Translations under genes and position numbers: made by a program | Notes under the pieces: generated by a model | Databases searched by the model: none | What the model was told of the DNA's origin: nothing | What the model saw: only the letters and a program-made list of their open reading frames with translations | From: an uncultured Actinomycetota bacterium | Lineage (GTDB): Bacteria; Actinomycetota; Actinomycetes; Mycobacteriales; Pseudonocardiaceae | DNA: 32,000 bases | Direction of reading: 5' to 3' | Assembly (NCBI GenBank): GCA_963731455.1 | Contig: CAVSVI010000005.1 | Location: forward strand, 498,713-530,712 | Shown here: piece by piece, positions 6,845 to 29,269 of the stretch | Position numbering within the stretch: the first letter of the stretch is position 1 | Layout: every line of letters starts with the position of its first letter

Positions 6845-7233
6845 GCCGTCGAGACGGTGGACTGGTTGATCCCGGGCAGCTGACCGGCTCGACGGTTCGG
6901 GCAGTGTGCGCTTCTCAGCCGTTCCTGGCCACCCTCACCTCAGCCCGACGAGGTCGGGGTTGCAAGGGAAGAACCGGTACTCCTCGAACTCTCCGGACTC
7001 GGTGTAGATCACTGCGAGCGCACGGCAGGGGGGCTCACGGTGTTGAGCGGCCCTTATCTCGAAGTCTGGCGGGTCTCTCACACCTGGCAGCGGTCGCTGC
7101 CATCCGTTGTCAGTTGCGGCTATAACCGCAGCTCAGCGGGCCCCGGGTCGGCCCTGTCCTGCTGCGCGCGGGTAGGGGATGACAGACTCTCGCTCGGACA
7201 GGTGTGTCGGGACGGTTGGCGGGAGACGCGCGC

Positions 7234-8058
7234 ATGAGCAACAGGCAGGACCCCGGCGGTCCGGTGTCGGTCGACCGGACCAAGGCGAGCATCGCCCGGG
7301 TCTACGACTGCGCGCTGGGCGGCAAGGACAACTATGAGGTCGACCGCGAAGTTGTCGAGAAGCTGCGTCAAGTCGCCCCTGAGATCACGCAGTTCACCAT
7401 CGATCACCGACAGTTCCTCATCCGCGTCGCCCGGTTCCTCACCGGCGAGGCCGAGCTCGACCAGTTCCTCGACCTCGGCTCGGGCCTACCGACAGCCGAG
7501 AACACCCACCAGGTCGCGCAGCGGATCAACCCCAAGACCCGCGTGGTGTACGTCGACAACGACCCGTCGGTCGTCGCCCACGGGCGGGCGCTGCTCGAGG
7601 AGAACGAGCTCTCCCGGTTCAGTGCAGCCGACCTGACCAATCCCGACGCGGTGCTGTCGGACCCGGTCGTGTCGGGCCACCTCGACTTCACCAGGCCCAT
7701 CGGCCTGCTCCAGCTGGGCACGCTGCACCACCACGTCGGTGAGCCGGCCCCGGCCGAGATCATGCAGCGCTACATTGACGCGCTCCCCTCGGGCTCCTAC
7801 GTGGCGCTGAGCCACTTCTACGACCCGCAGGACGAGAACAGTGAGCTCGCCCGCCGCATGGAGGCCGTGTTCGTGCACAGCCCGCTAGGCAGCGGGGTCT
7901 TCCGCACCAAGTCCGAAATCCTCGCGATGCTGCCGGGACTCGAGCTCATCGACCCCGGCTTCTCGCTGCTGGTGGACTGGTGGCCGGACGGGCCGCGCCT
8001 CAAGCCCTACCTGCCGTCCCAGCGCTGCCTGGCGGGCGCGGTCGGACGCAAGCCCTGA
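7234..8058 (+). CDS. SAM-dependent methyltransferase of the actinobacterial DUF574 (Methyltransf_19) type
   Basis: N-terminal ARVYDCALGGKDNYEVDR motif, LDLGSGLP SAM-binding loop, VVYVDNDP, and the C-terminal WWPDGP...LAGAVGRKP ending typical of this family. ATG at 7234 follows GGGAG. Confidence 0.75.
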   Translation: MSNRQDPGGPVSVDRTKASIARVYDCALGGKDNYEVDREVVEKLRQVAPEITQFTIDHRQFLIRVARFLTGEAELDQFLDLGSGLPTAENTHQVAQRINPKTRVVYVDNDPSVVAHGRALLEENELSRFSAADLTNPDAVLSDPVVSGHLDFTRPIGLLQLGTLHHHVGEPAPAEIMQRYIDALPSGSYVALSHFYDPQDENSELARRMEAVFVHSPLGSGVFRTKSEILAMLPGLELIDPGFSLLVDWWPDGPRLKPYLPSQRCLAGAVGRKP

Positions 8059-8211: not shown

Positions 8212-8959
8212 ATGAGCGGCGAGGACGGGCCTCAGGCGGTCGACCCGCAGGACGCCCTCGACGCAGTGGAGGCGCTGGTGCCCGGCGCGGTAGCGCTGGC
8301 CCGCGGCAACAGGATCTCGGCTTGAACGTGTCTGCCGTTTCCTCGTCGCGGAAGCCCGCGTCACCCAGTTCCTCGACCTCGGGGCGGGCCTCCCCATCGC
8401 GGGCAACACCCACCAGGTGGTGCGCCGGCTCTCCCAGACCGCCCAGGTGATCTACGTCGACAACGACCCTGCGACGGTCTCCCACGGCCAGAGTCTGGTC
8501 GCCGACGACGCCCGCGTCTGGTTCGTCGAGGGCGACCTGAGCGACCCCGACACCGTGCTCGCGGACCCAGTCATCCGCCGGCACCTCGACTTCACCCAGC
8601 CGATGGCGTTGCTGCAGAGCGCCACCCTGCACCACCTCCCCGACGAACTGGTCGACGGCGTCATGGCCCGCTACATCGCGGCGCTCGCACCCGGCTCATA
8701 CGTAGCGCTGAGCCACCTCTGTGATCCCGGCGGCGAGGCCGGGGAGCAAGTCCGCCGCGCGCGCGGAAGTCTGCTCGGTGAGCACTTCCGTCCCCGGGCC
8801 GCGATCGAGGCGCTGCTGGCGGGCCTGGAGCTCCTGCCCTCGAGTCAGACCAGCGTCGAGGGGCTCGTACCGGTTGGGCAGTGGTGGCCCGACGGGCCCT
8901 TCGTCCAGCTCTCGGAGCTGGAGCACTGCCTGCTCGGCGCGGTCGGCCGTAAGAACTGA
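8212..8959 (+). pseudogene. Decayed tandem paralog of the DUF574 methyltransferase (N-terminal motif lost, +1 frameshift near 8285-8335)
   Basis: Frame 2 reads ...RLERVCRFLVAEARVTQFLDLGAGLP...VIYVDNDP...WWPDGP...LLGAVGRKN, colinear with 7234..8058. That frame is closed by TAG near 8283 and has no start before GTG 8417. Frame 1 (MSGEDGPQAVDP...) lacks the ARVYDxxLGGKDN block and stops at 8325. Confidence 0.55.
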
Positions 8960-11695: not shown

Positions 11696-13162
11696 ATGGT
11701 GGGTGTGGTGCTGCGGCGGGTCGCCCGCCGCGGGCGCGCCGGCTGGGTGGCGGTCGCGGCGGTGCTGGCGTTGTGTGTGGGCTGCGCGGGCTCCGGGGGA
11801 GCCGCGCCCTCCGGCGGTGGGCTGACGTTGCCACCGGTCGCCTCGACGGGTGCGCCGACATCGCCGGCCCCGGGCGGGGGTGGGCTGCGGCCCGGTGGTG
11901 ACTGGTTGACCTATCATGGGGATCCCACCCGTGCCGGGTACGACCGGGACGGACCTGACCCGGCCAGCCCCGCGGTGGCCTGGCAGGCGCCGTTGGACGG
12001 CAAGGTGTACGCCAGCCCCCTGGTCGTGGGCGGTCAGGTGATCGCGGCCACCGAGAACGGGTCGCTCTACGGGCTGGACGCGGCCTCCGGCGCGGTGCGC
12101 TGGCGCACCCATCTCGCCGACCCGGTGTCGGGCAGCGCCCTGCCGTGCGGCGACATCGACCCGGTGGGGATCACCAGCACCCCGGTCGCGGATCCGGCGA
12201 GCGGACTGGTCTACGCCGTCACCACCCAGAGCGCTGCCGGGGGTGGGGTCGAGCACGTGCTGTGGAGCGTGGATGCCGCCACCGGGCAGGTCCGGGCCCA
12301 GCGCCCGGTCGACGCACCCGGGGCCGACCCGGCCACCCACCTCCAGCGTGGAGCGCTGCTGCTGGCCAACCACACCGTCTACGTCGCCTACGGCGGGAAC
12401 TACGGTGACTGTGGCCAGTACCTCGGCCGGGTCGTCGGCGTACCGACCACCGGCAACGCACCGCCGGCCACGTTCGCGGTCCCCACCACCCGCGAGGGCG
12501 GCATCTGGGCTGCGGCCGGCGCCGCCGCGCTCCCGAGCGGAGACCTGCTGGTCACCACCGGAAACGGTGACGCCGAGAGCGGTCCGTGGGATCACAGCGA
12601 CTCGATCCTGCGGTTGAGCCCGCAGCTCGCGCTGCTCGACGGCTTCGCCCCGACCCAATGGGCCCAGGAGAACTCCGAGGACGCCGACCTCGGCTCGACC
12701 GGCCCGGTGATCCTCCCCGGGGGCAACGAGGTGATCGCGGCGGGCAAGGGCGGCGGGATCTACCTCGCCGAGATCGCCGCGCTCGGTGGGGTCGGTGGAC
12801 AGCGAGCCCAACTGGACAACTGCGAGGCCTACGGCGGCGGTGCCGCGGCACCCGTGAGCGGCGGCGGCGCGGTGGCCTACCTGCCCTGCAGCACCGGACT
12901 GCTCCAAGTTCGGGTGCCCGGCCCCGGCCAGCTGGTCCGCGGCTGGCAAGCGCCCAGCCAGATCACCGGCTCGCCGATCGTGGTCGGAACCACGGTCTGG
13001 TCGCTGCAACAAGACGGCGTCCTCGACGCCCTCGACGCGGGTAGCGGCGCATTGCGCGCCAGTCTCTCGGTTGGCGACGCAAACCGCTTCGCCACCCCTG
13101 CGGTCAGCGGCAACGCGCTCTACCTACCCACCAACCACGGCATCACCGCCGTGCAGATGTGA
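11696..13162 (+). CDS. PQQ-like (BamB-type) beta-propeller repeat lipoprotein
   Basis: MVGVVLRRVARRGRAGWVAVAAVLALCVGCAG is a signal peptide with lipobox. Repeated propeller blades such as VYASPLVVGGQVIAATENGSLYGLDAASGAVRWR follow. The first 439 codons of track ORF 10379..13162 are an out-of-frame read-through of the preceding gene. Confidence 0.8.
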   Translation: MVGVVLRRVARRGRAGWVAVAAVLALCVGCAGSGGAAPSGGGLTLPPVASTGAPTSPAPGGGGLRPGGDWLTYHGDPTRAGYDRDGPDPASPAVAWQAPLDGKVYASPLVVGGQVIAATENGSLYGLDAASGAVRWRTHLADPVSGSALPCGDIDPVGITSTPVADPASGLVYAVTTQSAAGGGVEHVLWSVDAATGQVRAQRPVDAPGADPATHLQRGALLLANHTVYVAYGGNYGDCGQYLGRVVGVPTTGNAPPATFAVPTTREGGIWAAAGAAALPSGDLLVTTGNGDAESGPWDHSDSILRLSPQLALLDGFAPTQWAQENSEDADLGSTGPVILPGGNEVIAAGKGGGIYLAEIAALGGVGGQRAQLDNCEAYGGGAAAPVSGGGAVAYLPCSTGLLQVRVPGPGQLVRGWQAPSQITGSPIVVGTTVWSLQQDGVLDALDAGSGALRASLSVGDANRFATPAVSGNALYLPTNHGITAVQM

Positions 13163-13171
13163 AGCGCTCCA

Positions 13172-13193
13172 CCCCGGCCTTTCGGGGCCGGGG
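13172..13193. terminator. GC-rich hairpin between convergent genes (bidirectional terminator candidate)
   Basis: CCCCGGCC (13172-13179) pairs with GGCCGGGG (13186-13193) around loop TTTCGG. It lies between the stop at 13162 (+) and the stop at 13226 (-). Confidence 0.55.
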
Positions 13194-13225
13194 CGTCACC
13201 GCGTGGACGGCTTCCGACCGTCGGC

Positions 13226-13930
13226 TCAGCTGTCGTTCTGTGGCTTCGGCAGGTAGGGGGTCAGCGCGTTGGCGAGGGCGCGCAGGTCCCGTGTCTGTAG
13301 CAGGAGGTCGGCAGGGCCGGTGAACTCGGCGACAAGGCCCTCGCCCGAGGTGAGCGATCGAAACAGGCTCCGCGTCGCCTTACGCATGGCGTAGTGGGAG
13401 TCGGCGGGCCACGCGACGAGGTGCCCGGTGTCGACGAGGTGCCGCTCGCCCGGTGCGAGGGTGCGATGGGCGAGGGCGCCGAAGGCGGACAGCAGCACGA
13501 CGCCGGTGCCTGAGGCGCGGAGGACGAAGGTGCTGTTGGAGGCGAAGAGCGACTTCGCTCCGCCCCACCCGGTCTCGATGTCGATGCCGTCGGATGAGGC
13601 GAGGTAGCCGTGCGCGGCAATGGCGTAGGGCCGCCCGGTGAGCTCGACGGGCACGATGTCGCCGGGCCCGGGCGGGGCGAGGACGAGATCCCCTGGACCC
13701 GAGAACCGCGAGACGAACCCGGAGCGCCCGCCGGCGGTGCGCTTGACCGCGCCCCAGAGCCCGCCCTCCATCGAGGAGTCGAGGGTGACGTCTCCGCCCA
13801 TCGAGACCATGGCCCCGGACTCGGCGCGCACCGCATGGCCGTCTGGCAGCGTGAGGGTGGCAAGGGCGGCCATCGGGCGGAAGTCGATGCGGTAGTCGAG
13901 TCCGTGGGCGCGGCCGTGGGCGGGAAGCAT
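13226..13930 (-). CDS. AIM24-family protein (DUF124)
   Basis: LDYRIDFRP...TLTLPDGHAVRAESGAMVSMGGDVTLDS...GGLWGAVKR...GFVSRFSGPGDLVLAPP...GEGLVAEFTGPADLLLQTRD fits the AIM24/TIGR00266 pattern as I know it. Confidence 0.75.
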   Translation of the reverse strand: MLPAHGRAHGLDYRIDFRPMAALATLTLPDGHAVRAESGAMVSMGGDVTLDSSMEGGLWGAVKRTAGGRSGFVSRFSGPGDLVLAPPGPGDIVPVELTGRPYAIAAHGYLASSDGIDIETGWGGAKSLFASNSTFVLRASGTGVVLLSAFGALAHRTLAPGERHLVDTGHLVAWPADSHYAMRKATRSLFRSLTSGEGLVAEFTGPADLLLQTRDLRALANALTPYLPKPQNDS

Positions 13931-14100
13931 CGTGACTGCGGGATCCGTGTGCTCAGCCTCTCGCCCCAGGGCTCCTTCTCGTCAGTGGAAGATCATGCCA
14001 GCAGAATGGGTCCTCACGGGGTGCAGCGAGCACCAACCGGACGACCACCAGCCGCCCTCGTCGGAGTGGTGCCCCTCTCCGTGCCGGTTATTGGAGCAGG

Positions 14101-14463
14101 TCAGGCACTGGCCGCGTCGTGCCGCGCGCGTACCGCGTCCAGGCGGATAGCCAGTTCGGTCTCGTCGATGACGTTCCGGGTGACCAGCGAGTGCGCGAGG
14201 GCGACGAGCTGATTCTCCGGGTAGGGCAGTGAGGTGTACACCTCGCGGGAGATGCGGTCCTCGTCGTTGCGACGGGTGAGCAGGGGCAGCGCCGCGCCCT
14301 CCTCGTCGAGCGCGTCGCACATCGCATCTAGGCTGGATTTCCAGGGCGGCACCGGATTGGTGACGCGGTACTGCGCGGCCATCCGATCCCAGGTCTGTTC
14401 GCGCTCGACGATGTGCTCCAGCGTCCGCACGCGGACGGTCGCGATGTCGTGGTCGGTCGTCAT
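14101..14463 (-). CDS. Nitrile-hydratase-family accessory (activator or metallochaperone) protein, beta-subunit-related
   Basis: A small protein (120 aa) encoded 16 nt after the alpha-subunit gene. Its C-terminal LVALAHSLVTRNVIDETELAIRLDAV resembles the helical region of beta subunits and of NhhG/P14K-type activators. Position and size match known operons. Confidence 0.55.
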   Translation of the reverse strand: MTTDHDIATVRVRTLEHIVEREQTWDRMAAQYRVTNPVPPWKSSLDAMCDALDEEGAALPLLTRRNDEDRISREVYTSLPYPENQLVALAHSLVTRNVIDETELAIRLDAVRARHDAASA

Positions 14464-14479
14464 GTCGTGTTCCCGTGGA

Positions 14480-15208
14480 CTAGTCGCTCGTCACCGGACG
14501 GATCGCGGGATGCAGCGGGCGGGTCGCGTTCGAGGTGACCCCCGGCTTGGGCAGGGCGACGCCGATCAGGCAATCGCGGGTCACGATCTCCGCGAGCTGC
14601 TCCTCGCTCCACCCCTCCGTACCATCCGGCCGGACCGGAAGCACCATGAACCTGTGCTTCGAGTTGGAGTCTTCGACGCGGACCTCGACGTCCTCGGACA
14701 GATAGAGACCGAATTCCGCGAGGACCTGGCGCGGCCAGCGCACGATGCGGCGACGGTAGTTCGGCGTCCGGTACCACTCCGGTGACATGCCCAGTATCGG
14801 GCGGGGATAGCAGGAGCACAGGGTGCAGACGATCACGTGATGCACCGTCGGGGTGTCCTCGAGCACCTCGAACGCGGTGAAGTCACTGGGAGTGCCGAAT
14901 CCGGTCGGATGTAGCCAGTCGATGCCCAATTCCCGGGAGGCGGCGATGGCATCGTCCAGCGCCAACCGCCTGAATTCCGGATCGAGCCAAGCCCTGGCGA
15001 CGAACCGGGACCCGGCGGCCGGCTCGAGCTGCTCCACATGCTCGGTATAGCGCCGGTGATCCTCGGCGGTGAACAGGCCCTTCTCGATCGCGAGCTCCCG
15101 CAGAGCGATCTCCAGCACCTCGAAGTCGGTGATCTCCTCGACCATCGGTGCCGTGCCGGCATGCTCGTGCGTGTCGTGCCCCGTCCCGCCCGGATCCGTC
15201 TCCGCCAT
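14480..15208 (-). CDS. Cobalt-type nitrile hydratase alpha-family subunit, thiocyanate-hydrolase-gamma-like (242 aa)
   Basis: Metal-claw motif VCTLCSCYPRP with Cys at residues 128, 131 and 133 and Arg at 136. A His-rich N-terminus (GHDTHEH) is followed by PMVEEITDFEVLEIALRELAIEKGLF. The CTLCSC (Thr) signature indicates the Co type. Confidence 0.85.
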   Translation of the reverse strand: MAETDPGGTGHDTHEHAGTAPMVEEITDFEVLEIALRELAIEKGLFTAEDHRRYTEHVEQLEPAAGSRFVARAWLDPEFRRLALDDAIAASRELGIDWLHPTGFGTPSDFTAFEVLEDTPTVHHVIVCTLCSCYPRPILGMSPEWYRTPNYRRRIVRWPRQVLAEFGLYLSEDVEVRVEDSNSKHRFMVLPVRPDGTEGWSEEQLAEIVTRDCLIGVALPKPGVTSNATRPLHPAIRPVTSD

Positions 15209-15260
15209 CCCGTCTCCCTCCTCGTCCCCGCGGCTGGTGCCTGCGGCTGGTGCCCTTGCG

Positions 15261-16094
15261 CTAGCCCGCTGGTTGGAGCCACCGCTCCGAGATCTCGGCC
15301 TGGAGCGTGTCGTTCGGACAGCCCGTGTACGCCTCCCACAGGTCAGCCATCCGGAAGCGCACGATGTAGAACCACTCCGACTTCTGGTCTTCCCGGTCGA
15401 ACGCCTCGTCCTCCGGCGCCAGGCTCTCGTAGGAGACCTTGGCGACCCTTCCGCTCGCGCCCCTCAGGTATTCCTGGGTGCGTGTGTAGAAGATCGTCGG
15501 TAGCTCGCGCACGAGCACCACATCGCCGACCGCGAACTTGGGTGCGCCCGCCGTGCCGGCGAAGCATTGCGGATCGCCCTTGCCGACCGCATCCAGGTGA
15601 TGACGGTTTCGGGCGACCGCCTCGGTGTTCCCGGTGGTGCGGGGCGCGGCGTCGATGGGACCGCCGGTCCCGCCGGCGTAACGATCCCGGACCTCGCTCA
15701 CCCGCTCGATCAGCTCGCCGAGCGTGATGTGCCGCTTCTCGACCAGGCAACGGGCGATGGCCCACAGCCAGCGGCCGTAATAGGGCAGGCCGAGATAGTT
15801 GGTCCGTCCGAGATCGACGTTGCCGAGCCTTCTGCGTTCCTCCGACGTCCAGATGCCCCGCCAGCCCAGGACCTCACAGGTGACGAACGTGTTGAGCTCC
15901 CACTCCTCCTCCTCCTTGTCCTCGAACAAGGCGGGGGCGTCCGGCTCACCGCCGACGTCGTGCGGCGTCTTCATGTAGGCCTGGAACGCTCCGTGATCGA
16001 CCTGATCCGGGTACGTCCAGTCCTGGACGCGGTGAAGCGCCACGCGCAGCTGGCTCGAAAGATCGCCCAGGACCGAGTTACCCACGACCGCCAC
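15261..16094 (-). CDS. Nitrile hydratase beta-family subunit (277 aa from GTG 16094; alternative ATG start at 15974)
   Basis: PHDVGGE near the N-terminus, acidic patch DKEEEEWELNTF, PYYGRWLWA, and C-terminal FAVGDVVLVR...YLRGASGRVAKV...FYIVRFRMADLWE...WLQPAG. Third-position GC stays at about 80% through the 40 codons upstream of ATG 15974, which favours the long form. Confidence 0.8.
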   Translation of the reverse strand: MAVVGNSVLGDLSSQLRVALHRVQDWTYPDQVDHGAFQAYMKTPHDVGGEPDAPALFEDKEEEEWELNTFVTCEVLGWRGIWTSEERRRLGNVDLGRTNYLGLPYYGRWLWAIARCLVEKRHITLGELIERVSEVRDRYAGGTGGPIDAAPRTTGNTEAVARNRHHLDAVGKGDPQCFAGTAGAPKFAVGDVVLVRELPTIFYTRTQEYLRGASGRVAKVSYESLAPEDEAFDREDQKSEWFYIVRFRMADLWEAYTGCPNDTLQAEISERWLQPAG

Positions 16095-16338
16095 CCCGCT
16101 GGAAGAACCGTCTCATGCCTCCAAATGGAGGATCAGGCTAGCGTCGATCACCCCCTCCGGGAAGTAGTTGACCTCGGCTGCGGGACCCGAGCCTCCGTCT
16201 CGGTCGACCCCACGCGCGGACGTCGGTGCGAGCGGGGGCGCCTTGGTCGTCGCGCGGTTCCACCGTGGCCGAGCTGCGGTGGAGGCTCCGCGCAGGAGCC
16301 GGTGCTGTCGGCCCAACCCGGCGTGCAAGCGGATCGGT

Positions 16339-16394
16339 GTCACGCCTGAGTTCGCCCACGGTCTGCCGACCTCGCACGTCACGGGTGATCGAGC
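16339..16394 (-). repeat. Right copy of the 56-bp inverted-repeat pair (partner at 10328-10383)
   Basis: The reverse complement reads GCTCGATCACCCGTGACGTGCGAGGTCGGCAGACCGTGGGCGAACTCAGGCGTGAC. On the minus strand it lies about 245 nt upstream of the beta-subunit GTG at 16094. Confidence 0.9.
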
Positions 16395-16497
16395 GCGGCA
16401 CCCGGGCGGGTGGTCGCCTGGCAGCCTTCAACCCGCCGGACGTGGCCGGGCGCGGCGTGACATGCCGAGCGCGGGCTGGCCTGCGAGGATTGCAGGT

Positions 16498-16665
16498 ATG
16501 TCACGGACAGCTCGGCAATGGGTCGGAGCCGTCGCGCTGCTGGCGCTGGTTGCCGCGATGGTCTACTTCGCCATGCAACGTGACACCGGTATCACAGTCA
16601 TACTGGTCGCCGTGGTTCTCCTCGCCGCAGTCGCCGGCGCGATCCTGGTGTCGCGGAAGGAATGA
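16498..16665 (+). CDS. Small two-TM membrane protein (55 aa), hypothetical
   Basis: MSRTARQWVGAVALLALVAAMVYFAMQRDTGITVILVAVVLLAAVAGAILVSRKE has two hydrophobic helices. ATG at 16498 follows GAGGA with an 8-nt spacer. Confidence 0.45.
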   Translation: MSRTARQWVGAVALLALVAAMVYFAMQRDTGITVILVAVVLLAAVAGAILVSRKE

Positions 16666-16938
16666 CCGATGGGAGCGATCTGGTAGGCCCCGCTATCAAG
16701 ACGTGGGCCGAGTCGAGCTCCCGAGCGGGCGGGGACGGCGCGGACAACGACTGCTGCCTGGGCCGCCCAGTGGTTGCTCGGTCCGACGGGTCGCCGTCCA
16801 GAGCGTGGTCGGGTCGGAAGGTCCGGGCGTAAGCACCAGCAAGGTCGCCGGCGCCATCTTTCGGTACTCGAGCGATCCCGATCGTGGACGATGTCGACCG
16901 TCCGGCTCGTACACATTCTCGGCCGCTGGTCTGGAGTA

Positions 16939-17769
16939 TCAGGCCGGCTTGCGGCCCCATGCGGTGATCATCGGTGCGAGCATGAGGTCCAGGTCGCCGT
17001 GCGCGAGGTTCGCGAGATGCGTCTCGATCTCCTGGGGCGTCGCCAGTTGCGCGGCCAAGAGTTGGTCGCGGACGTGCTGGACCGTGGCCGCCTCCAGGAC
17101 CGCGCACTCGCGTGAGGCGATGGGGAAGTACGCCTCGGCGCGAACGTCGGTCAGGTCTGACTCACGCAGCAGCCGGGGCAGCGTGCGACCGTATGCGAGG
17201 TCCGCCCCGCGCTCGGCCATCAGTGTTCGGATCCGAGTGCGTAGCCGGTTCGCGAGCGCTTCGTCGGGGCCGCGTTCGTCCGGGCAGGCGAGTGGCTGCA
17301 GGGCCGGGTCCCCGTCCTCGATCACCAGCCATCCGCCCGGCCGGAGGGCATCGATCATGACTCGCATCGCGGCCGCGCGATCCGCGAGGTGGACCAGGAC
17401 CAGCCGGGCGTGGACCAGGTCGAACGTCTCCGCCGGCGGTGGGTCGCGGATCACGTCGTGTCCCCGTACCTCGAGCGCGCCACCGGCCGCGGGCTCGGCC
17501 CACGACACGTCGATGTCTGTGGCCGGCACCCGTCCGTTGCTCCCCACGCGCTCCGCCAGGCCGCGCGGCACCGAGACGCCGCCGGCACCGACCTCCCAGC
17601 ACCGCCATCCCTCACCGAGCCCCAGGGCGTCGAGGTGACGGAAGGTCCATGGGTCGAACATCTCGGCGAGCGCCACGAACCGTTCGCCAGCCTCCGGGCG
17701 ACGGTTGTCGAGCAGATAGCGGTTCACCGGACCAGCGTGGCCCGTCAACGTTGAGGTGCAGTCAGCCAT
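16939..17769 (-). CDS. Class I SAM-dependent methyltransferase
   Basis: Motif I as CWEVGAGGVSVPRGLA, then ATDID, FDLVHARLVLVHL and LRPGGWLVIED. ATG at 17769 (MADCTST...) is preferred over the track start at 17886. Confidence 0.75.
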   Translation of the reverse strand: MADCTSTLTGHAGPVNRYLLDNRRPEAGERFVALAEMFDPWTFRHLDALGLGEGWRCWEVGAGGVSVPRGLAERVGSNGRVPATDIDVSWAEPAAGGALEVRGHDVIRDPPPAETFDLVHARLVLVHLADRAAAMRVMIDALRPGGWLVIEDGDPALQPLACPDERGPDEALANRLRTRIRTLMAERGADLAYGRTLPRLLRESDLTDVRAEAYFPIASRECAVLEAATVQHVRDQLLAAQLATPQEIETHLANLAHGDLDLMLAPMITAWGRKPA

Positions 17770-17994
17770 GGCCACGAGGACACGAGCTTGAGCGGGACGC
17801 TGGAAGAATCTGGCGACAAAGTGTGCTCGACCACGGACGGGCAGATACAGTTCCAGGGAGATTGCACCTGGATCAAGCAGTAGCACGTGGCGATCACGTC
17901 CACCTGATGCAGACGTGTGGCTGGCCTCGCCGAGGAAGTGCCTCCTCGAGGTTAGTGATCAAGCTCAAGCTTTGAGTTCATCGGGGTCGATCGA

Positions 17995-18565
17995 TCAGGG
18001 GGTCCGGCGGCGAATGAGGCTGCGGATGCGGTCGGGGGACATCGGCGGGAACACCACCTCGGTCAGCAGCTCGTCGGACTCGAGGCTCGTCTGGAACGTG
18101 CCGGTGAAGAACTCGGTCGCCGGCACGGTGCACTGACAGTCCGGACCGACGATCACGATCCGGGCATCCAGCGCGACCGCAACCGTCGGCACCTCCGCGG
18201 CCGGGTTGTGGTGGGCCAGGCTCCCGCACACGGTGCCGTGGTTGCGGATCTGGGGATGCCCGATCCACGCGATCGCCTCGGCCAGCAACGGCCATCCCCG
18301 CCGCACCTGCGGCGCTGCCGCCAACGCCGCCTGCCGCACGCCCGGGCCCGACGTGAAGCCCGTCCTCGTCCACCCACGACGAACTCAGCCCCTCGACCCG
18401 TGTGATGTCCACCAGCAGCTCCGGGCGCGCCAGTCGCATGCTCAGCAAGGGAATCAGCGACTGGCCTCCGGCGAGCACTTTCACGTCCCGGTCGGGTTCG
18501 CCGAGAAACCGCAGAACGTCCGGCACTGACCCAGGCGCCACGTAGTCGAACGGTGGAGGTTTCAT
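17995..18565 (-). pseudogene. Frameshifted, C-terminally truncated FAD-binding medium subunit of a CoxM/xanthine-dehydrogenase-type molybdoenzyme (orphan remnant)
   Basis: The N-terminal frame reads MKPPPFDYVAPGSVPDVLRFLGEPDRDVKVLAGGQSLIPLLSMRLARPELLVDITRVEGL...DGLHVGPG. It continues in another frame as (V)RQAALAAAPQVRRGWPLLAEAIAWIGHPQIRNHGTVCGSLAH...ATEFFTG. The junction is in the run GGGCCCGGG near 18340-18348. No large or small subunit genes are adjacent. Confidence 0.6.
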
Positions 18566-18655
18566 GGCAACAAGCGCTCCTTTCGCCGACCTGCACCGTC
18601 GCGCCGGGTCCAGGCAGGGCGCTTTGAAGGCTCGGTCTTGTCGGAGAAACGTCCC

Positions 18656-19741
18656 TCAGGCGGGCTGCAGCTTCGCTGCTTGCTCTTGGGCTTCGGCTCG
18701 ATACATCCGCCGGATACGGGAGACTCCGAGGTCGTGCTGGTAGAGGTGCTCGGAGACGTCGGCGTCGTCGGGCAGCGCCTCGAGCACCATCCGGTCCTGT
18801 TCGAGCACGGCCCAGTGCCGGGCCTCCAGGCGCGTGCGGTAGAGGAACCGCCAGACCTCGCGCTCCCATCCGGAGACCCGTCGTGTCCGCCAGTGGAAGA
18901 TCGCCGAGCGGTGCGCATCGATCGGGGTGACCATGCCGACGATGCCGAAGACTCCGCCGGGGCCGGCGTTGGGTGCATACGGGATCTCGAGATCGACGTG
19001 ATCGGTCGCGCCTCGGCAGAACTCGACCCAGTCGAAGTTGACGCCTCGCTGGTCGGTCTTCTCGAAGAAGAAGCCGCGCTCGGTCTCGCGGATGCGGAAT
19101 CGGGCCGAGGTGTCGCCGCCGAACATAGAATGGGAGTCGCGGTGGAGGAATGCGCCGTGCATGGGGTCGAGCACGTTGTCCATGTAGAAACGCCACGGGC
19201 CGGCCCACTCGGCGTAGTTGGGGAACCAGGAGACGGCGGGGTCGGCCAGCCGGTCAGGGAGCGTGAACTCGGTGGGTTCGGACTGTTCGGTCAGCGGGAC
19301 GAACGCGAAGATGGTGTCGGCGGCCTCGACGACCTTCAGCGAGACGGCTGCCTTCTTGCCCTCGAGGGCGCAGCCGGGCATGCCGGGCACCGATGCGACG
19401 GTGCCGTCGCCGGTGACCTGGACGCCGTGATAGCGGCACGCGACCCGGTCCCCGAGGTGCTGGCCGACCGAGAGTGGGGCGCTGCGGTGCGGGCAGCGGT
19501 CCTCCAGCATGAACAGCGTGCCCTGGGCGTTGCGGAACAGGAGCCAGTCGACGCCCAGGCGGGTGACGGGGAGCATCTGGCCGGTTCCGACGAACCGTGA
19601 CGGCAGGATCGGGTACCAGCGGTCACGCAACCCGCTGGCGGCGATCTCGTCGGCGGAGAGCGTCTGCCGGGTACCGACGGCCTGGCGGGGCTTCGCCGGG
19701 CGGGTGCGAGCCGGTGTGGGTGGGGTCGTGACGTCGGTCAT
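18656..19741 (-). CDS. Rieske [2Fe-2S] non-heme-iron oxygenase, alpha-only type (phthalate/VanA/KshA-like class IA)
   Basis: Rieske motif CPHRSAPL...CRYHG and mononuclear iron motif DNVLDPMHGAFLH. ATG at 19741 lies 1 nt after the preceding stop. The upstream 222 codons of the track ORF are out-of-context read-through. Confidence 0.85.
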   Translation of the reverse strand: MTDVTTPPTPARTRPAKPRQAVGTRQTLSADEIAASGLRDRWYPILPSRFVGTGQMLPVTRLGVDWLLFRNAQGTLFMLEDRCPHRSAPLSVGQHLGDRVACRYHGVQVTGDGTVASVPGMPGCALEGKKAAVSLKVVEAADTIFAFVPLTEQSEPTEFTLPDRLADPAVSWFPNYAEWAGPWRFYMDNVLDPMHGAFLHRDSHSMFGGDTSARFRIRETERGFFFEKTDQRGVNFDWVEFCRGATDHVDLEIPYAPNAGPGGVFGIVGMVTPIDAHRSAIFHWRTRRVSGWEREVWRFLYRTRLEARHWAVLEQDRMVLEALPDDADVSEHLYQHDLGVSRIRRMYRAEAQEQAAKLQPA

Positions 19742-19742
19742 C

Positions 19743-19961
19743 TCATTCTCCCAGTCGGCGCATCTCGGCGCGGAAGCTGTCTTCGGTCCACGGGTTTCCG
19801 TCGGGGGCGCGCAGCCCGAGCCCGTTGAGGCCTTCGGTGAGTCCGGGAAGGTCGTGGACTCCGCGACCGAAGACCTCCATGATGGCGCCGGACAGTTTCG
19901 TCTCGTAGGCGCTGATCGGTTCCGCGTGGGTCTGGTGCTCGTCGAGGTATTGCTCAGACAT
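19743..19961 (-). CDS. 72-aa hypothetical protein, translationally coupled between the alpha/beta-fold protein and the Rieske oxygenase
   Basis: MSEQYLDEHQTHAEPISAYETKLSGAIMEVFGRGVHDLPGLTEGLNGLGLRAPDGNPWTEDSFRAEMRRLGE. The start overlaps the upstream stop (ATGTCTGA), and its own stop is 1 nt from the Rieske ATG. Confidence 0.55.
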   Translation of the reverse strand: MSEQYLDEHQTHAEPISAYETKLSGAIMEVFGRGVHDLPGLTEGLNGLGLRAPDGNPWTEDSFRAEMRRLGE

Positions 19962-20526
19962 CGGTTCTCTCCTGGGACGGGTTCGGCAGGCCCTCGGCGA
20001 TGACCATGAAAGCGGTGGCCCACTCGGTGAACGATTTCGGGCTGCTGCGATGGGTCGGTGCCACGGCGCCGTCGATGACCACCATGACGCCGTTGTCGAT
20101 TCCACCGGCCACGCTCTGGGCCTGGGAGGTGTCGGTGCCGGGTTCCGGCGCTGCGACCACGACGAGGGTGGGCGCATGGACCTGTCGCAGCAGCTCCCAG
20201 TAGCCGGCGTCGGACTCGTCGACCTGCGGATCCCCGGCCAGGATGCTGGTCACGAGGTCGCGGCGGCGAGCGGCCAGCAGCAGCGCTCGGGGCACTGCGG
20301 CCCCGGCGGCGATCACGTGCACGGGAGCACCGTCGAACCGGGTGGCGATCGTGCTCGCCGCCTGGGTCAGCCAGGCCTCGTCGTCGAGGCCCTCCTCCGC
20401 TGTCCACTCGAGGGCTTCGAGGGCGTGGACCTGCTCGAGGAACCAGTCGGCGGGCTCGCTGGCCGAGCGCAGGCAGAGCACGGCGGTGGTCAATGAGCCG
20501 GCCCGGGACGGCGTCGTGGTGGACAT
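19954..20526 (-). CDS. Short alpha/beta-hydrolase-fold-like protein that appears to lack the nucleophile serine
   Basis: At the position of the nucleophile elbow GxSxG the sequence reads VHVIAAGAAVP. The C-terminal PTLVVVAAPEPGTD...VVIDGAVAPTH resembles the acid/His strands of the fold. It is only 190 aa. Confidence 0.5.
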   Translation of the reverse strand: MSTTTPSRAGSLTTAVLCLRSASEPADWFLEQVHALEALEWTAEEGLDDEAWLTQAASTIATRFDGAPVHVIAAGAAVPRALLLAARRRDLVTSILAGDPQVDESDAGYWELLRQVHAPTLVVVAAPEPGTDTSQAQSVAGGIDNGVMVVIDGAVAPTHRSSPKSFTEWATAFMVIAEGLPNPSQERTDV

Positions 20527-20531
20527 GCTGA

Positions 20532-22214
20532 CTAGCTCCTTCCGGTGGGGGTGGGGACGTGCACGGGCGGAGAGAAGGCGCCGGGGCCGGGTTCGAGCGC
20601 GGTCACGTCCACCTCGACCATCACGGGCCCGTGCGTGGTGACGGCGTCGCGCAGCGCCGGTCCGAACTCTCCGGAATCGCGCACGAGCCAGTGGGGCATG
20701 CCCATCGACCGGGCCAGGAGCCCGAAGTCGGGCGTGTGCAGGTCGACCGCGGTGACGTCGAACCCGTGGGCCCGTTGCATGTTGCGCAGCACCCCGTAGC
20801 CGCCGTCGTTGAAGACCAGCACGACGACCCAGGCGCCGGTGCCGGCGAGCGAGGCGAGCTCACCGAGGTGCACCGACAGCCCGCCGTCGCCGGCCATGAC
20901 GAGCGTGGGCGCCTCCGGGCGTCCGACGCCCGCCCCGATGCCCATCGCCAGTCCCTGGCCGATCCCGCCGCCGACCGGGAACACGTTCGTCTCGCGCGAG
21001 TAGAGCTCGAGGAGCCGGTTGCCCCATTGGCTCGACGGGATCGTCACGTCGCGGGCGACCACGGCCTCGCGGGGTAGCTCGGCCCGCAATGTCCGGCAGA
21101 TCTCGGCGTACCCACCGAGCTGGTCGTACAGCGCGGCACGGACGTGTTCCCGGACGTCGCGCACTCGTCGTGGCCAGTCCTGCTCGGTAGCGGTGCCGGG
21201 CAGCCGCCGGCGCAATGCGGCCAAGACCGGGGCGGCGTCCCCGACCAGGCCGACCTCGGCCGGGTACACCCGGCCGATGGCGCGCGGGTCGATGTCGATC
21301 TGGACCTGCGGTTTCGGCAGCTCCAACTGGTAGCCGCGAGTCTCATTGGACCGGAAATGTGAACCGACCGTGAGCAGCAGGTCCGCGTCCGCGAGCAGCG
21401 GGGCGAGGGCCGATGCGGTGGCGAAGTTCCCGATCACCAGGTCGTCGTCCTCGGGAATGATCCCTCGTCCGGAGTTGCTGGTCAGCACGCCCGCGCCGAG
21501 CCGATGTGCGAGCGCGCCCAGCTCGGCTCCGGCGCCGGCGGCGCCCCCGCCGACCCAGAGCAGCGGACGCCGGGCGCCGGCCAGCTGCCTCGCCGCGGCG
21601 TCGAGCGTGTCGGGAGCGGGCGCCGGGACGGCCGCGGGGGCCACCGAGACCGGCTGCTGTTCGCCGGGTCGGGCCAGGTACTGCAGATCCGAGGGCCACT
21701 CGACGCTGGCCGGCCCACCGGGTATCCCGCCGACCGCGGCGAGCGCCTCCTCCAGCGCGGCCTCGGCCTGGTCGGCCCCGGACACGCTCACGGCGTGCGC
21801 GGAGACGGCCTCGAGCATCCGGCGCTGCCCCGGGAACTCGTGGATCACACCGCGGGCCGGGCCGGGGTCCGTGGCGTCGTAGAACTCGGAGTCGATCTGG
21901 CCGGTGACGTGAAGGACCCGGCTGGCGGCCGTGAGTGCCTCGACCATCGACCCGGCCGCGTTGCCTGCTCCGGTGCCGGTGCTGGTGATGGCCACGCCGA
22001 TGCCGCCGGTGCTGCGGGCATAGCCGTCGGCGGCGTTGACCGCGGCGGCCTCGTGCCGCATCTCGACGAACCGTAGGTCGCGCGCTACGGCCTCGACGAG
22101 CGGCAGGTTGTGGACGCTGAGGACCCCGAACGCGGTGTCGATGCCGTGGCCACGCATCACGGCGACGAGGACGTCGCCGCCGGTGCCCGTTGACGACATG
22201 GGTGCCTCAGACAT
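20532..22214 (-). CDS. Thiamine-diphosphate-dependent enzyme (acetolactate-synthase large-subunit / benzoylformate-decarboxylase superfamily)
   Basis: N-terminal PYR domain with the catalytic Glu context RHEAAAVNAADGYAR, and C-terminal ThDP motif GDGGLSVHLGELASL...LVFNDGGYG. The start MSEAPMSS at 22214 overlaps the upstream stop (ATGTCTGA). Confidence 0.85.
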   Translation of the reverse strand: MSEAPMSSTGTGGDVLVAVMRGHGIDTAFGVLSVHNLPLVEAVARDLRFVEMRHEAAAVNAADGYARSTGGIGVAITSTGTGAGNAAGSMVEALTAASRVLHVTGQIDSEFYDATDPGPARGVIHEFPGQRRMLEAVSAHAVSVSGADQAEAALEEALAAVGGIPGGPASVEWPSDLQYLARPGEQQPVSVAPAAVPAPAPDTLDAAARQLAGARRPLLWVGGGAAGAGAELGALAHRLGAGVLTSNSGRGIIPEDDDLVIGNFATASALAPLLADADLLLTVGSHFRSNETRGYQLELPKPQVQIDIDPRAIGRVYPAEVGLVGDAAPVLAALRRRLPGTATEQDWPRRVRDVREHVRAALYDQLGGYAEICRTLRAELPREAVVARDVTIPSSQWGNRLLELYSRETNVFPVGGGIGQGLAMGIGAGVGRPEAPTLVMAGDGGLSVHLGELASLAGTGAWVVVLVFNDGGYGVLRNMQRAHGFDVTAVDLHTPDFGLLARSMGMPHWLVRDSGEFGPALRDAVTTHGPVMVEVDVTALEPGPGAFSPPVHVPTPTGRS

Positions 22215-22989
22215 AGCGGGACACACCCCCACCGACGTCGATCGTGGCGCCGGTGCAGTAGCCGGACAACGGCGACAGGAGCGTCACGATCGGGAACGCG
22301 ACCTCCTCGGCCCGTCCGAACCGGCCGAGGACGACGCCGCGGTCGGCGGCGACCTCGGCGGCCCACTGGTCGTAGTCGACCGTGGTGTCGGATTGCGAGT
22401 AGCGGCGTCGCCATTGGCCGGTGTCGATGAGCCCGAGAGCGACCGAGTTGACCCGGATGCCTTCCGGACCGAGTTCCTGGGCGAGGCTGCGGGTCACGTT
22501 GAGCAAGGCGGCGCGGGCGGCCGAGGTGACCCCGAGCCGGGCGTCCGGCTGGCGAGCGAGGATCGCGTTGACGTTGACCACGGCGGCGGCGTCCGAGGAA
22601 GCCAGGTACTTGCGAGCGGCCCGGATGACGTTCCAGGCCCCGAAGACCTTGAGCTCGAGCTCCTCGCGGATCTGGGTATCGGTGGTGTCGGTCAGCGAGG
22701 CCATGAGCGAGCGACCGGCGTTGCACACCACGCCGTCGATCCGTCCGAACGCCTGCGCCCCCTCGGCGATCATCGCCTCGCTGGAGGCACGATCCACGAC
22801 GTCGCAGGACACCGCGTGTACCCGGCCAGTTCCGGGAAGCAGGTCGACGGCGTGCCGTAGCCGGTCGAGGTCGCGGGCCGAGGCGATCACGTCGGCGCCC
22901 TCGGCGAGCAGGTATCGGGTGGTCGCCAGGCCCACACCGGAGCTGGCTCCGGTGACCACCACGGCACGACCGCCCAGCTGCAGGTCCAT
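22207..22989 (-). CDS. Short-chain dehydrogenase/reductase (SDR)
   Basis: The TGASSGVG cofactor motif, the NAG motif as CNAG, and overall length (260 aa) fit a classical SDR. Confidence 0.8.
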   Translation of the reverse strand: MDLQLGGRAVVVTGASSGVGLATTRYLLAEGADVIASARDLDRLRHAVDLLPGTGRVHAVSCDVVDRASSEAMIAEGAQAFGRIDGVVCNAGRSLMASLTDTTDTQIREELELKVFGAWNVIRAARKYLASSDAAAVVNVNAILARQPDARLGVTSAARAALLNVTRSLAQELGPEGIRVNSVALGLIDTGQWRRRYSQSDTTVDYDQWAAEVAADRGVVLGRFGRAEEVAFPIVTLLSPLSGYCTGATIDVGGGVSRYV

Positions 22990-23005
22990 CTGAAGGTCCT
23001 TCCGG

Positions 23006-23752
23006 TTATTGGGGCATGACGAAGCCGCCGTCGACGGCCACCACTTGCCCGGTGATGAACCCGGCCCGGTCGGAGAGGAGGTAGGCGACGAGATCGGCGA
23101 CGTCCTGGGGTGTCTGCTCCCGAGCGAGCACCCGGTTGTCGGCGTAGAGCCGATAGCGCTCGTCCGGTACCGACTCGGTGGCCTCGACGCGGACCAGCCC
23201 GGGCGCGACCGCGTTGACCCGTACCCCGTGCGGCCCGGCGTCGCGCGCCATGCCCCGGGTCATCGCCAGCACGGCGCCCTTGGAACCGACGTAGTGCACC
23301 AGTCGCGGCGACCCGTAGATCGCCGCGTCGGAGGCCATGTTGACGATCGCGCCCGCGCCCTTGACGAGCATCTGGGGCACGAGTCGGGCAGCCACCTGCC
23401 AGGTGCCCAAGGCATTGACCGTGAGCACTCGGCGGAAGGCCTCGACGTCGAGCTCCCAGAAGGTGCGGCCGCCGACTCCGTCGGCCAGCGCCGCGTTGTT
23501 GACCAGTGCGTCGGCCCCGCCCAGCTCCTCGGTGCGCGCGGCCAGCCGGGCCACCGCATCCGGATCAGTGACGTCGACGGCCAGTGTGTGCACCTCGGTG
23601 CCGTCCGCTGCCAGCTCGGCGGCGGTCTTGTCCAGCAACTCCTCGCGCACGTCGACGAGTACGAGCCGGGCGCCCTCGGCAGCGAGCGTGCCGGCGATCA
23701 CCTGACCGAGGCCGCGTGCCGCGCCGGTCACGACGGCGAGCCGGCCGCTCAT
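23006..23752 (-). CDS. Short-chain dehydrogenase/reductase (SDR, FabG-like)
   Basis: TGAARGLG, NNAA and YVGSKGAV (YxxxK) motifs; 248 aa. Confidence 0.85.
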   Translation of the reverse strand: MSGRLAVVTGAARGLGQVIAGTLAAEGARLVLVDVREELLDKTAAELAADGTEVHTLAVDVTDPDAVARLAARTEELGGADALVNNAALADGVGGRTFWELDVEAFRRVLTVNALGTWQVAARLVPQMLVKGAGAIVNMASDAAIYGSPRLVHYVGSKGAVLAMTRGMARDAGPHGVRVNAVAPGLVRVEATESVPDERYRLYADNRVLAREQTPQDVADLVAYLLSDRAGFITGQVVAVDGGFVMPQ

Positions 23753-24537
23753 CGCCGGCCCCAGAACTCGAGCATCGCCGCGGCCACGTCGTCCGGGCGC
23801 TCGCTCACGCCCGCGTGACCGGCGCCGGTCAGGCGCTGCAGCGACGCACCGGGGATACCGTCGGCGAGCTGCCGGGAGGGCACTTCTCCGGTCACGCGGT
23901 CGTGCTCGCCGACCAATACCAGCGTCGGCGCCGTGATCGACGAGAGCAGTGGGGTGTTGTCGGTGGTGGCCATGAACTCCGCCGCGGCGCGGTAGCCCGG
24001 CAGCCGGACCTCGGCCATGGCGGCTCGGACCGCTGCGGCGGTCGTGGGGTCACACCCGGGCGCGACGAGGATCGGCGCCCGGGCGGTGGCGAACGCATCG
24101 GCCCCTCGGGCCGCGAGATCCTCGACGCGGGCGCGCATCGCGGCGGCCGCGTCCGGGCGGCCACCGGAGCCAGGGGTGGAATCGGCCAGGACCAGCGACC
24201 GCACGCGTTCCGGGTACCGGGCCGCGACCAGCGTGGCGATCACTCCACCCCAGGAGGTGCCGACCAGGTCGACCTCGTCGATTCCGAGCTGGTCGAGGAT
24301 CGCGAGCACCCGGGTCGGATAGTCGGTGTCGGCGGGACCGGCCGGGTCGATGGACTCGCCGTATCCGGGCGCGTCCCAGCACATCGCCCGCAGGCCGTGC
24401 GTGGCCAGTAACGCCGCCACGGCGGCGAACGAACGGGCGTTGCCGCCGATCCCGTGCAGCAGCAGCACGGTGCGGCCGTGCCCCTGCTCGGTCAGGCAGA
24501 CGCCGGCGGCGACCCGGCGGCGGGCGGTCACGGGCAT
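23749..24537 (-). CDS. Alpha/beta hydrolase (meta-cleavage-product hydrolase / enol-lactonase type)
   Basis: LLLHGIGGN oxyanion region, nucleophile elbow GTSWGG, and C-terminal GAGHAG His region. ATGA overlap with the downstream SDR. Confidence 0.8.
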   Translation of the reverse strand: MPVTARRRVAAGVCLTEQGHGRTVLLLHGIGGNARSFAAVAALLATHGLRAMCWDAPGYGESIDPAGPADTDYPTRVLAILDQLGIDEVDLVGTSWGGVIATLVAARYPERVRSLVLADSTPGSGGRPDAAAAMRARVEDLAARGADAFATARAPILVAPGCDPTTAAAVRAAMAEVRLPGYRAAAEFMATTDNTPLLSSITAPTLVLVGEHDRVTGEVPSRQLADGIPGASLQRLTGAGHAGVSERPDDVAAAMLEFWGRR

Positions 24538-24538
24538 C

Positions 24539-25537: not shown

Positions 25538-25572
25538 CGCTGACTCCAGTTCCGGGCGCTGGGTGGGGCTCG

Positions 25573-26544: not shown

Positions 26545-26585
26545 TGTTGCTTCCTCAAATCCGCGGTGGCACTTCGGCAGGCGCT

Positions 26586-27113
26586 TCAGCGGGTGACGCC
26601 GTACATCTCCGACGACGGCGGGTAGGTCGGCAGCTGCGGCTTCGACGCTCCGATGATCACGCACATCAGGGCGTCGGTGTCGCCGACGTTGCGCAGCGAG
26701 CGGGGGACCCCGGCCGGGACGCGGATGAGGTCGCGGTACCCCAGCACCCGGGTGGCCTTCTTGGTGCCGTCCTCGACGTCATGCACGGCGACCTCGAGCT
26801 GACCCTCGAGGACGTAGAAGACCTCCTCGACATCGGGGTGGGTGTGCTCGGGCCCGACGGCACCCGCGGGCAGGCGCATGTTGGAGAACGTGAAGTGCTC
26901 GGCCTGCAGGGTGCGGGAGTCGCCGGCGTGGTCCCCGGTGGCGCCGGAGCCGATGTAGCGGATCTGCGCGCGCTTGAAGCGGTCGCCGCCCTTGGCGGCC
27001 TGGAAGCCGAGGGTGTCCCAGTCCTCGTAGCGGCTCCCCGCGGTGGCCGTGCACGAGTCGATCAAGGCCTCCAGGTCGGTGGCCTGCGGGGTCGTCGCGG
27101 TCTGCTCGCTCAT
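26586..27113 (-). CDS. Cupin-domain protein (metal-binding cupin_2 type), function unknown
   Basis: GPEHTHPDVEEVFYVLEGQLEV matches cupin motif 1 (HxH...E...G), and a later VPAGVPRSLRN region follows. 175 aa. Confidence 0.7.
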   Translation of the reverse strand: MSEQTATTPQATDLEALIDSCTATAGSRYEDWDTLGFQAAKGGDRFKRAQIRYIGSGATGDHAGDSRTLQAEHFTFSNMRLPAGAVGPEHTHPDVEEVFYVLEGQLEVAVHDVEDGTKKATRVLGYRDLIRVPAGVPRSLRNVGDTDALMCVIIGASKPQLPTYPPSSEMYGVTR

Positions 27114-29055: not shown

Positions 29056-29269
29056 CGGGGTTCTCCTTCGATGGGGCGGTGGGCGCACAGCAACGGGCCA
29101 GGGGTCGGCGCCCAGGGGCAGGACGGACCTTCCGGGAAAGGGTCACCAGCTCGGCCGTGCCACGACGGCCTGGCTTCGGAAGGGGCTGGTTCCACCCCGG
29201 CTGCCGCTCGACCGGCTCGAGAGCCGACCGGGTCGTTGCAAGCATCGTGACCGCGGGACCGGGCGTCCG

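Follow-up and report, generated by a model that had tools for sequence, protein, structure and literature searches.

The locus and its three genes

The DNA analysed here (the window; 32,000 nucleotides of contig CAVSVI010000005.1) belongs to an Actinomycetospora genome (Pseudonocardiaceae; 6.8 Mb, 73% G+C, 94% complete) and encodes a predicted thiocyanate hydrolase (SCNase), a relative of the nitrile hydratases (NHases). Three minus-strand open reading frames (ORFs) are located exactly where an initial annotation, made from the letters of the DNA, had placed them. A gene for a fused beta-alpha subunit is followed 52 nt further 3' by the gamma subunit gene and, after another 16 nt, by a small activator gene (Table 1). 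The initial annotation had described the product as SCNase-like, with beta and alpha subunits joined, and at the sequence level this assignment holds: the SCNase model TIGR03887 was passed, the NHase models were failed, and the trees of both subunits agree.

Table 1. Features of the SCNase-type cassette in the window, and coordinates of the split cassettes used for comparison
Feature	Position	Strand	Remarks
Fused beta-alpha gene	15261-16094 (277 aa, longest ORF, GTG); 15261..16085 (274 aa, conserved GTG)	minus	ScnB-ScnA homologue
Gamma subunit gene	14480..15208	minus	242 aa, predicted catalytic and metal-binding subunit
Activator gene	14101..14463	minus	120 aa, predicted P15K-type maturation protein
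ScnB-like part	15663..16049	minus	residues 16-144 (277-aa numbering); equivalent of NHase beta N-terminal helical domain
Linker, 17 aa, GPIDAAPRTTGNTEAVA	15612..15662	minus	confirmed by translation
ScnA-like part	15270..15611	minus	residues 162-275; equivalent of NHase beta C-terminal SH3-like domain
Arg-Arg-Arg (RRR) motif	15828-15836	minus	in ScnB-like part, confirmed by translation
His/Asp-rich tail of gamma	15161-15181	minus	
Metal claw CTLCSCYPR of gamma	14801-14827	minus	C128...R136, confirmed by translation
Promoter-like element TTCCCG-17 nt-TAGCCT	16135..16163	minus	about 50 nt upstream of start codon
Split actinobacterial cassettes (other genomes)	L104 5001-6752; L105 5001-6773; L106 5001-6746		

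The gamma subunit, whose N-terminus reads MAETDPGGTGHDTHEH, matches the Pfam family NHase_alpha. It scored 379.4 bits against TIGR03887 (NCBIfam 'thiocyanate hydrolase subunit gamma'; cut-off 291.45) and 214.1 bits against the NHase alpha model TIGR01323, under the cut-off of 249.85. Its best match in the Protein Data Bank (PDB) was ScnC of Thiobacillus thioparus (2DD4_C, 243 aa, E 1.9e-105), followed by the alpha subunits of classical NHases (E 6e-55 at best). Gamma and ScnC are about 64% identical over the whole chain, their residue numbers coincide, and the alignment places C128, C131, S132, C133 and R136 at identical positions in both. The colinear numbering put forward by the initial annotation, Arg136 included, is thereby borne out, as are the T. 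thioparus subunit lengths it gave (gamma 243, beta 157 and alpha 126 aa in the PDB sequences). The claw could be read from the minus strand as C128-T-L-C131-S-C133-Y-P-R136, and CTLCSCY is the cobalt-type claw of NHases. Arg136 we take to have a structural role in the substrate pocket; the literature searched yielded nothing on its role. PDB entry 3VYG contains an identical gamma chain except for Trp in place of R136, which was therefore the residue targeted by its depositors.

To compare gamma subunits column by column, we used 51 positions that are invariant in seven proteobacterial SCNases and absent from six NHase alphas. The window gamma keeps 32 of these signature columns, including S142, E144, R147, N150, R153, Q161, N182 and K184, and in the stretch behind the claw every one of them is kept. 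R136 is retained in all 23 SCNase-type gammas examined. The classical NHases of the same genome read CYPW or CYPL after the claw, not CYPR. A His/Asp-rich N-terminal tail is common to gamma, ScnC and their relatives.

The fused subunit combines the Pfam domains NHase_beta_N and NHase_beta_C in a single ORF, the latter covering residues 183-274. Residues 16-144 align with ScnB 19-147 of 157 (2DD4_B, E 1e-45) and residues 162-275 with ScnA 12-125 of 126 (2DD4_A, E 1e-32), which confirms the proposed beta-then-alpha order of the fusion. The best classical NHase beta reached E 3e-10 against the whole fused protein, and the NHase beta equivalog model gave 86 bits, short of its cut-off of 152. The linker between the two parts, GPIDAAPRTTGNTEAVA, aligns to neither ScnB nor ScnA, is poorly conserved and has a pLDDT below 50 in the structural model; its position corresponds to that of the scnB stop and scnA start in Proteobacteria. 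The AlphaFold2 monomer model of the fused chain was of low confidence overall (mean pLDDT 59, pTM 0.56), as expected for a subunit that folds around a partner. The T. thioparus enzyme is an (alpha-beta-gamma)4 assembly of three separate subunits. Here we found beta and alpha in one ORF without a stop, and because this ORF is uninterrupted here and in 78 of 80 relatives, the enzyme is predicted to be a two-chain variant of SCNase.

Several features are common to the fused chain and ScnB/ScnA and are not found in NHase beta: an N-terminal extension of about 40 aa, EEEWELNTF, WRGxW..EERRR, GDPQCF, FYTRT and YESxAxEDEA. The extension before PHDVGGE and the acidic patch (KEEEEWELNTF), both pointed out by the initial annotation, are present in the 277-aa protein. 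RRR is invariant among 31 homologues, whereas classical NHase betas keep the central Arg alone. The SCNase of T. thioparus THI115 (scnB-scnA-scnC plus P15K; 2DD4, 2DD5, 3VYG) thus shares the extension, EEEWELNTF and RRR with the beta part, GDPQCF and FYTRT with the alpha part, and the claw, the His/Asp tail and a C-terminal extension with gamma. The host of that enzyme is a sulfur-oxidising autotroph, whereas the cassette host here is a heterotrophic actinobacterium, for which function is read from sequence. In the proteobacterial scn operons compared, whose gammas are 77-95% identical to ScnC, the order of beta part, alpha part, gamma and activator is the same, but scnB and scnA are separate genes that overlap by 8-26 nt, where the window has one polypeptide with a 17-aa linker.

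Classical cobalt NHases (Pseudonocardia thermophila 1IRE, Bacillus smithii 1V29) are of the same fold family, carry the cobalt-type claw and have a single-chain beta, and their genes likewise follow the order beta, alpha, activator (PMC7193024). However, they form a separate clade, match the window proteins less closely (E 1e-48 to 1e-55 for alpha, 1e-6 to 1e-10 for beta), have Trp rather than Arg after the claw and possess a beta subunit with neither the N-terminal extension nor RRR.

The activator, at 120 aa shorter than its counterparts in proteobacterial scn operons (141-151 aa), gave a weak match to NHase_beta_N (E 1e-3). It matches the gene directly 3' of scnC in three proteobacterial operons (tblastn, E 1e-22 to 1e-30), so that the small activator gene recognised by the initial annotation is homologous to the gene following scnC. 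With the fused subunit it shares 32-36% identity over the N-terminal domain of the latter, and it is predicted to be a distant paralogue of that domain. In T. thioparus, P15K is given as the activator that follows scnC (Kataoka 2006, as cited in PMC5458468 and PMC3511329), and activators of cobalt-type NHases work by exchanging the alpha subunit of the apo-enzyme for a cobalt-loaded one (PMC3511329, PMC7193024).

The initial annotation had started the fused protein at GTG 16094, giving 277 aa. Because GTG 16085 is conserved across eight related Actinomycetospora upstream regions, together with a G-rich Shine-Dalgarno sequence (GGGGTGG, 16091-16097, 5-11 nt before it, conserved in eight species), while GTG 16094 is not, the protein probably starts at GTG 16085 and has 274 aa, in agreement with the usual homologue length of 272-275 aa. 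The claim that it begins upstream of ATG 15974 (Met41) stands: homology starts at residue 16 against ScnB and at residues 1-3 against congeners, homology to ScnB and to relatives reaches codons 4-16, and because homology reaches this far upstream, ATG 15974 is excluded. In eight Actinomycetospora species with otherwise differing flanks, the sole conserved block upstream of the cassette is TTCCCG-17 nt-TAGCCT, a candidate promoter. Its -35 element deviates from the sigma-70 consensus, and a scan with that consensus found no promoter. A terminator scan gave a single terminator-like match at 13016-13030, outside the cassette. The Rfam scan of 13000-18000 (E <= 1) returned nothing and therefore no riboswitch.

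Distribution and origin of the fused form

For the fused protein, 763 homologues were found at E <= 1e-3, and the best 120 are without exception 221-305 aa long; in the sources the homologues are labelled 'SH3-like domain-containing protein', 'nitrile hydratase subunit beta', 'thiocyanate hydrolase subunit beta' or 'thiocyanate hydrolase subunit alpha/beta'. Relatives of gamma are encoded in at least 527 species-representative genomes, and we analysed the best 80 of these as one set of loci. They are almost all from Actinomycetota (Actinomycetospora, Mycobacterium, Mycolicibacterium, Nocardia, Kitasatospora, Speluncibacter, Solirubrobacteraceae). Fused beta-alpha, gamma and activator follow each other in this order in 80 of 80 loci, with one copy frameshifted and one cut by a contig end; the activator stands after gamma in all of them. 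Beyond the three genes, the 80 loci have no conserved neighbours. The largest additional neighbour 'cluster' was rejected, as it consisted of antisense ORFs of the fused gene itself.

That is, the fused layout is standard in the actinobacterial relatives and is already annotated there. The initial annotation had called the enzyme uncharacterised, which is true of its biochemistry; its novelty needs qualifying, given that 80 of 80 loci are fused and that mycobacterial papers already list genes probably of this type as thiocyanate hydrolase (PMC4617892, PMC11001197, PMC3505973). Loci of Mycobacterium and Mycolicibacterium carry the identical three-gene cassette; compared with the window, identity is 59-76% for beta-alpha and 75-83% for gamma. 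M. smegmatis MSMEG_6266/6267 and M. indicus pranii MIP3820-22 probably belong to the same fused-type family, their function being given by annotation. They differ from the window genes in genus and genomic context, and for M. smegmatis expression data under nitrogen limitation exist (PMC4617892).

Within the genus, the cassette is present in 11 of 34 genomes, this one counted (10 of the 33 others have a gamma over the model cut-off), and it was intact and in the same order in all nine examined loci of other genus genomes and in one genome of another family. Its proteins are 87-95% identical to those of congeners, gamma being 92-95% identical to its counterparts in named Actinomycetospora species. 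An even sample of 400 Actinomycetota contained seven carriers, all of one family (seven of its nine sampled genomes), while 400 Pseudomonadota sampled evenly around a carrier yielded no other genome over the cut-off. Two metagenome-assembled genomes (MAGs) with unexpected labels carry fused cassettes: a 2.1-Mb MAG labelled Methylocystaceae has two and a MAG labelled as a Nitrososphaeraceae archaeon has one (L090, L097 and L100 of genome G061, and L096). All of these copies nest within the actinobacterial fused clade, which points to mis-binned contigs or recent transfer. An apparent triple fusion of 479 aa (P0136) was rejected as a frameshifted read-through from a noisy assembly.

A second actinobacterial lineage has split genes (Nocardia farcinica 'ScnB homolog', Rhodococcus, Dactylosporangium; L104-L106). 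Its gamma passes TIGR03887 (383-392 bits), and CTLCSCYPR and RRR/MRRR are kept, but the enzyme consists of three chains, with a ScnB-like subunit of 141-144 aa and a ScnA-like subunit of about 98 aa without GDPQCF; the activator has 107-110 aa. Two of these three loci adjoin genes for the cobalt transporter CbtA/CbtB. As a side observation on split forms, an Acidiferrobacterales genome contains, about 2.3 kb upstream of its scn operon, a second split ScnB/ScnA-like pair with no adjoining gamma (L103 1127-1862, minus strand).

In the gamma tree and in the beta-alpha tree alike, the SCNase-type clade was separated from the NHases with 100/99 support, and neither subunit branched within classical NHases. 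Rooted on NHase alphas, the gamma tree reads (split-actinobacterial, (split-proteobacterial 100/98, fused 93/94) 100/100); the split actinobacterial lineage hence branches outside the pair of fused and proteobacterial forms. Rooted on NHase betas, the beta-alpha tree has the same backbone, with the fused clade at 100/99 and the pairing of fused and proteobacterial forms at 97/89. One divergent fused sequence, P0126, stands outside this pair, between it and the split actinobacterial lineage (98/94 and 97/89). A single clade of all split forms was rejected by the approximately unbiased (AU) test (p = 0.003 for gamma, p = 0.013 for beta-alpha). A tree of the N-domain only did not resolve, and a first gamma tree, calculated without the Nocardia-type lineage, had put the split clade inside the fused one, a placement lost with added sampling.

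The trees lean to an ancestral fused form. With the unsplit outgroup, parsimony on the beta-alpha tree requires two steps if the fused state was retained and two fissions followed, and three if a fission was followed by re-fusion. In addition, the position of the cut differs between the two split lineages, the GDPQCF segment being absent from the actinobacterial one, which fits independent fissions. We tentatively suggest, as a scenario that is possible rather than probable, that the fused beta-alpha chain is ancestral and derives from an NHase-like beta, and that three-subunit SCNases arose through two fissions, one in Proteobacteria and one in the Nocardia/Rhodococcus lineage. As a related possibility, the fused clade may have a physiological substrate other than thiocyanate. 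The alternative, a re-joining after one fission, gains from the fact that P0126 is a single long branch and that fusions are generally easier than fissions; it needs three steps instead of two when P0126 is included in the beta-alpha tree, and the two scenarios tie when that sequence is left out.

Genomic setting of the cassette

Across window positions 14001-20000 the G+C content is 0.67-0.69, as against 0.70-0.745 on either side. This stretch holds the SCNase cassette, a methyltransferase, a broken CoxM-like gene, a Rieske oxygenase and a recombinase-like HTH_62 ORF, and it may have been horizontally acquired; the lower-GC setting and the flanks that differ between congeners fit an accessory, mobile cassette. 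The CoxM-like gene (FAD-binding subunit of a molybdenum hydroxylase, 17978-18565, minus strand) is split over two overlapping frames: one ORF covers profile positions 2-70, the second (17995-18339) positions 75-169, and the C-terminal domain is missing. Either the assembly is wrong here or the gene is a truncated pseudogene with a frameshift.

On the other side, an AIM24-family gene (13226-13930, minus strand) lies 170 nt 3' of the activator in the same orientation. It is probably unrelated to the cassette, because it adjoins no other SCNase locus examined (none among the 80 loci). Farther away, two Methyltransf_19 (SAM-dependent) genes stand in tandem on the plus strand (7204-8058 and 8417-8959); the second matches profile positions 90-267 only and is thus truncated or has a miscalled start. 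A minus-strand catabolic run at 18656-29088 encodes a Rieske/VanA-type oxygenase, a ThDP enzyme, two SDRs, an alpha/beta hydrolase, a ferredoxin-NAD reductase, a cupin and an aldehyde dehydrogenase; it appears to be a gene cluster for the breakdown of aromatic compounds, with no relation to the cassette.

Substrate and physiological role

We propose that the cassette encodes an SCNase-type non-corrin cobalt enzyme, and that hydrolysis of thiocyanate for nitrogen scavenging is its most likely task, a reading we hold as probable but short of secure. The cobalt, the cysteine oxidation, the substrate, the physiological role and the quaternary structure we infer as follows. Gamma would bind Co(III) via Cys128, Cys131, Ser132 and Cys133, with Cys131 oxidised to the sulfinate and Cys133 to the sulfenate by analogy with the solved enzyme. 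The beta-alpha chain would wrap gamma and supply RRR which, judging from the alignment, may together with gamma R136 lend the pocket a positive charge that favours a small anion. The activator would assist cobalt loading of gamma, the task of P15K in Thiobacillus. The predicted reaction, that of EC 3.5.5.8, is SCN- + 2 H2O -> COS + NH3 + OH-. In a heterotroph the useful product would probably be ammonia, the role thus being nitrogen scavenging and not energy gain, and the carbonyl sulfide (COS) could be handled by a clade-D beta-carbonic anhydrase encoded elsewhere in the genome.

This carbonic anhydrase is of the Rv1284 type (E 1e-58 to 1YLK; E 7e-37 to the COSase 3VQJ), and actinomycetes with clade-D beta-carbonic anhydrase degrade COS (PMC5745022). 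Three NicO-type Ni/Co transporter loci are also found elsewhere in the genome. Expression data from mycobacteria are in line with a role in nitrogen supply: MSMEG_6266/6267 of M. smegmatis, annotated as SCNase beta and gamma, are up 3.7-fold and 3.4-fold under nitrogen limitation (PMC4617892) and are also raised in a PII mutant (PMC11001197), and MIP3820-22 of M. indicus pranii have been described as a nitrogen-supplying thiocyanate hydrolase complex (PMC3505973).

A number of observations weigh against the assignment of thiocyanate as the substrate. Proteobacterial scn operons also contain a NitT/TauT ABC transporter and in many cases cyanase, genes for cobalt uptake and DsrE/TusA/SQR (in agreement with PMC5328954); the window has no NitT/TauT transporter, cyanase, cobalt transporter or DsrE/TusA/SQR, and none of these is conserved around the 80 loci. 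The NitT/TauT transporter was looked for over all 32 kb, and the remark of the initial annotation that no COS hydrolase or cobalt transporter lies nearby is likewise correct for this range. Cyanase and CbtA were not found in the 94%-complete genome either. Nineteen of the 51 signature columns deviate from the characterised clade. TIGR03887 gives about equal scores (379-393 bits) to all three SCNase-type lineages and therefore marks the clade, not the substrate. An equivalent of R136 also occurs in two proteobacterial NHase-like alphas outside the clade, and for this reason Arg136 alone is not diagnostic of it. These two proteins (L098, L099; genomes G287, G087) read CTLCSCYPR(M/Q) and score 206-218 bits with TIGR03887, below the cut-off. 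The identification of MSMEG_6266 as the fused type draws on a lone adjacent-numbered pair of 'beta' and 'gamma' genes, and the searchable literature yielded no biochemical test of any fused actinobacterial enzyme. The judgement of the initial annotation that the substrate is open was fair, with the evidence now leaning to thiocyanate.

The explanation that competes best retains fold and chemistry and assumes a different physiological substrate, such as organic thiocyanates, cyanamide, selenocyanate, cyanate or a small anionic nitrile, with thiocyanate turned over as a side activity at most. The fused forms make up a clade of their own next to the sole characterised one (93/94 in gamma, 100/99 in beta-alpha), 19 of 51 signature columns differ, the cassette is without the thiocyanate-type transporter, cyanase and sulfur-oxidation genes of the proteobacterial operons, and a few changes are known to suffice for altering the substrate range of NHase-family enzymes. 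Yet the pocket-proximal signature residues, RRR and R136 are all kept, and an identity of about 64% in the catalytic chain usually means the same reaction, which makes a different substrate unlikely, though it deserves to be taken seriously. Induction by nitrogen limitation fits any nitrogen-releasing substrate and does not separate the two explanations.

It is far less probable that we are dealing with an ordinary cobalt NHase of class EC 4.2.1.84 that acts on organic nitriles and resembles SCNase superficially. The Pfam domains are indeed the generic NHase ones, and some sources call the homologues 'nitrile hydratase subunit beta'. Both subunits, however, stay under the NHase equivalog cut-offs (214 versus 250 and 86 versus 152 bits) and outside the NHases in the trees (100/99), Arg replaces the post-claw Trp and hydrophobic pocket positions, and three separate classical NHase alpha genes already exist in the same genome. 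That the cassette is a silent or decaying accessory with no present function in this strain is hardly credible: its distribution over the genus is patchy (11 of 34 genomes), the G+C content around it is lowered, the frameshifted CoxM-like gene is close by and its flanks vary between species, but all three ORFs are intact, the proteins share 87-95% identity with their counterparts in congeners, conservation extends to the start codon, the Shine-Dalgarno sequence and the promoter-like block, and every catalytic motif is in place.

Thiocyanate, which contains both nitrogen and sulfur, is common in nature and in industry. To our knowledge, biochemical work on thiocyanate hydrolase is limited to a few sulfur-oxidising proteobacteria. 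In the genome collections searched, the fused two-chain form is far more widespread than this characterised type. For the window itself, the outcome is the correct functional annotation of an accessory cassette, an ordinary result. If the fused enzymes do hydrolyse thiocyanate, a two-gene enzyme would be easier to express for bioremediation, and soil mycobacteria, Nocardia and Actinomycetospora would constitute an overlooked thiocyanate sink and a source of carbonyl sulfide.

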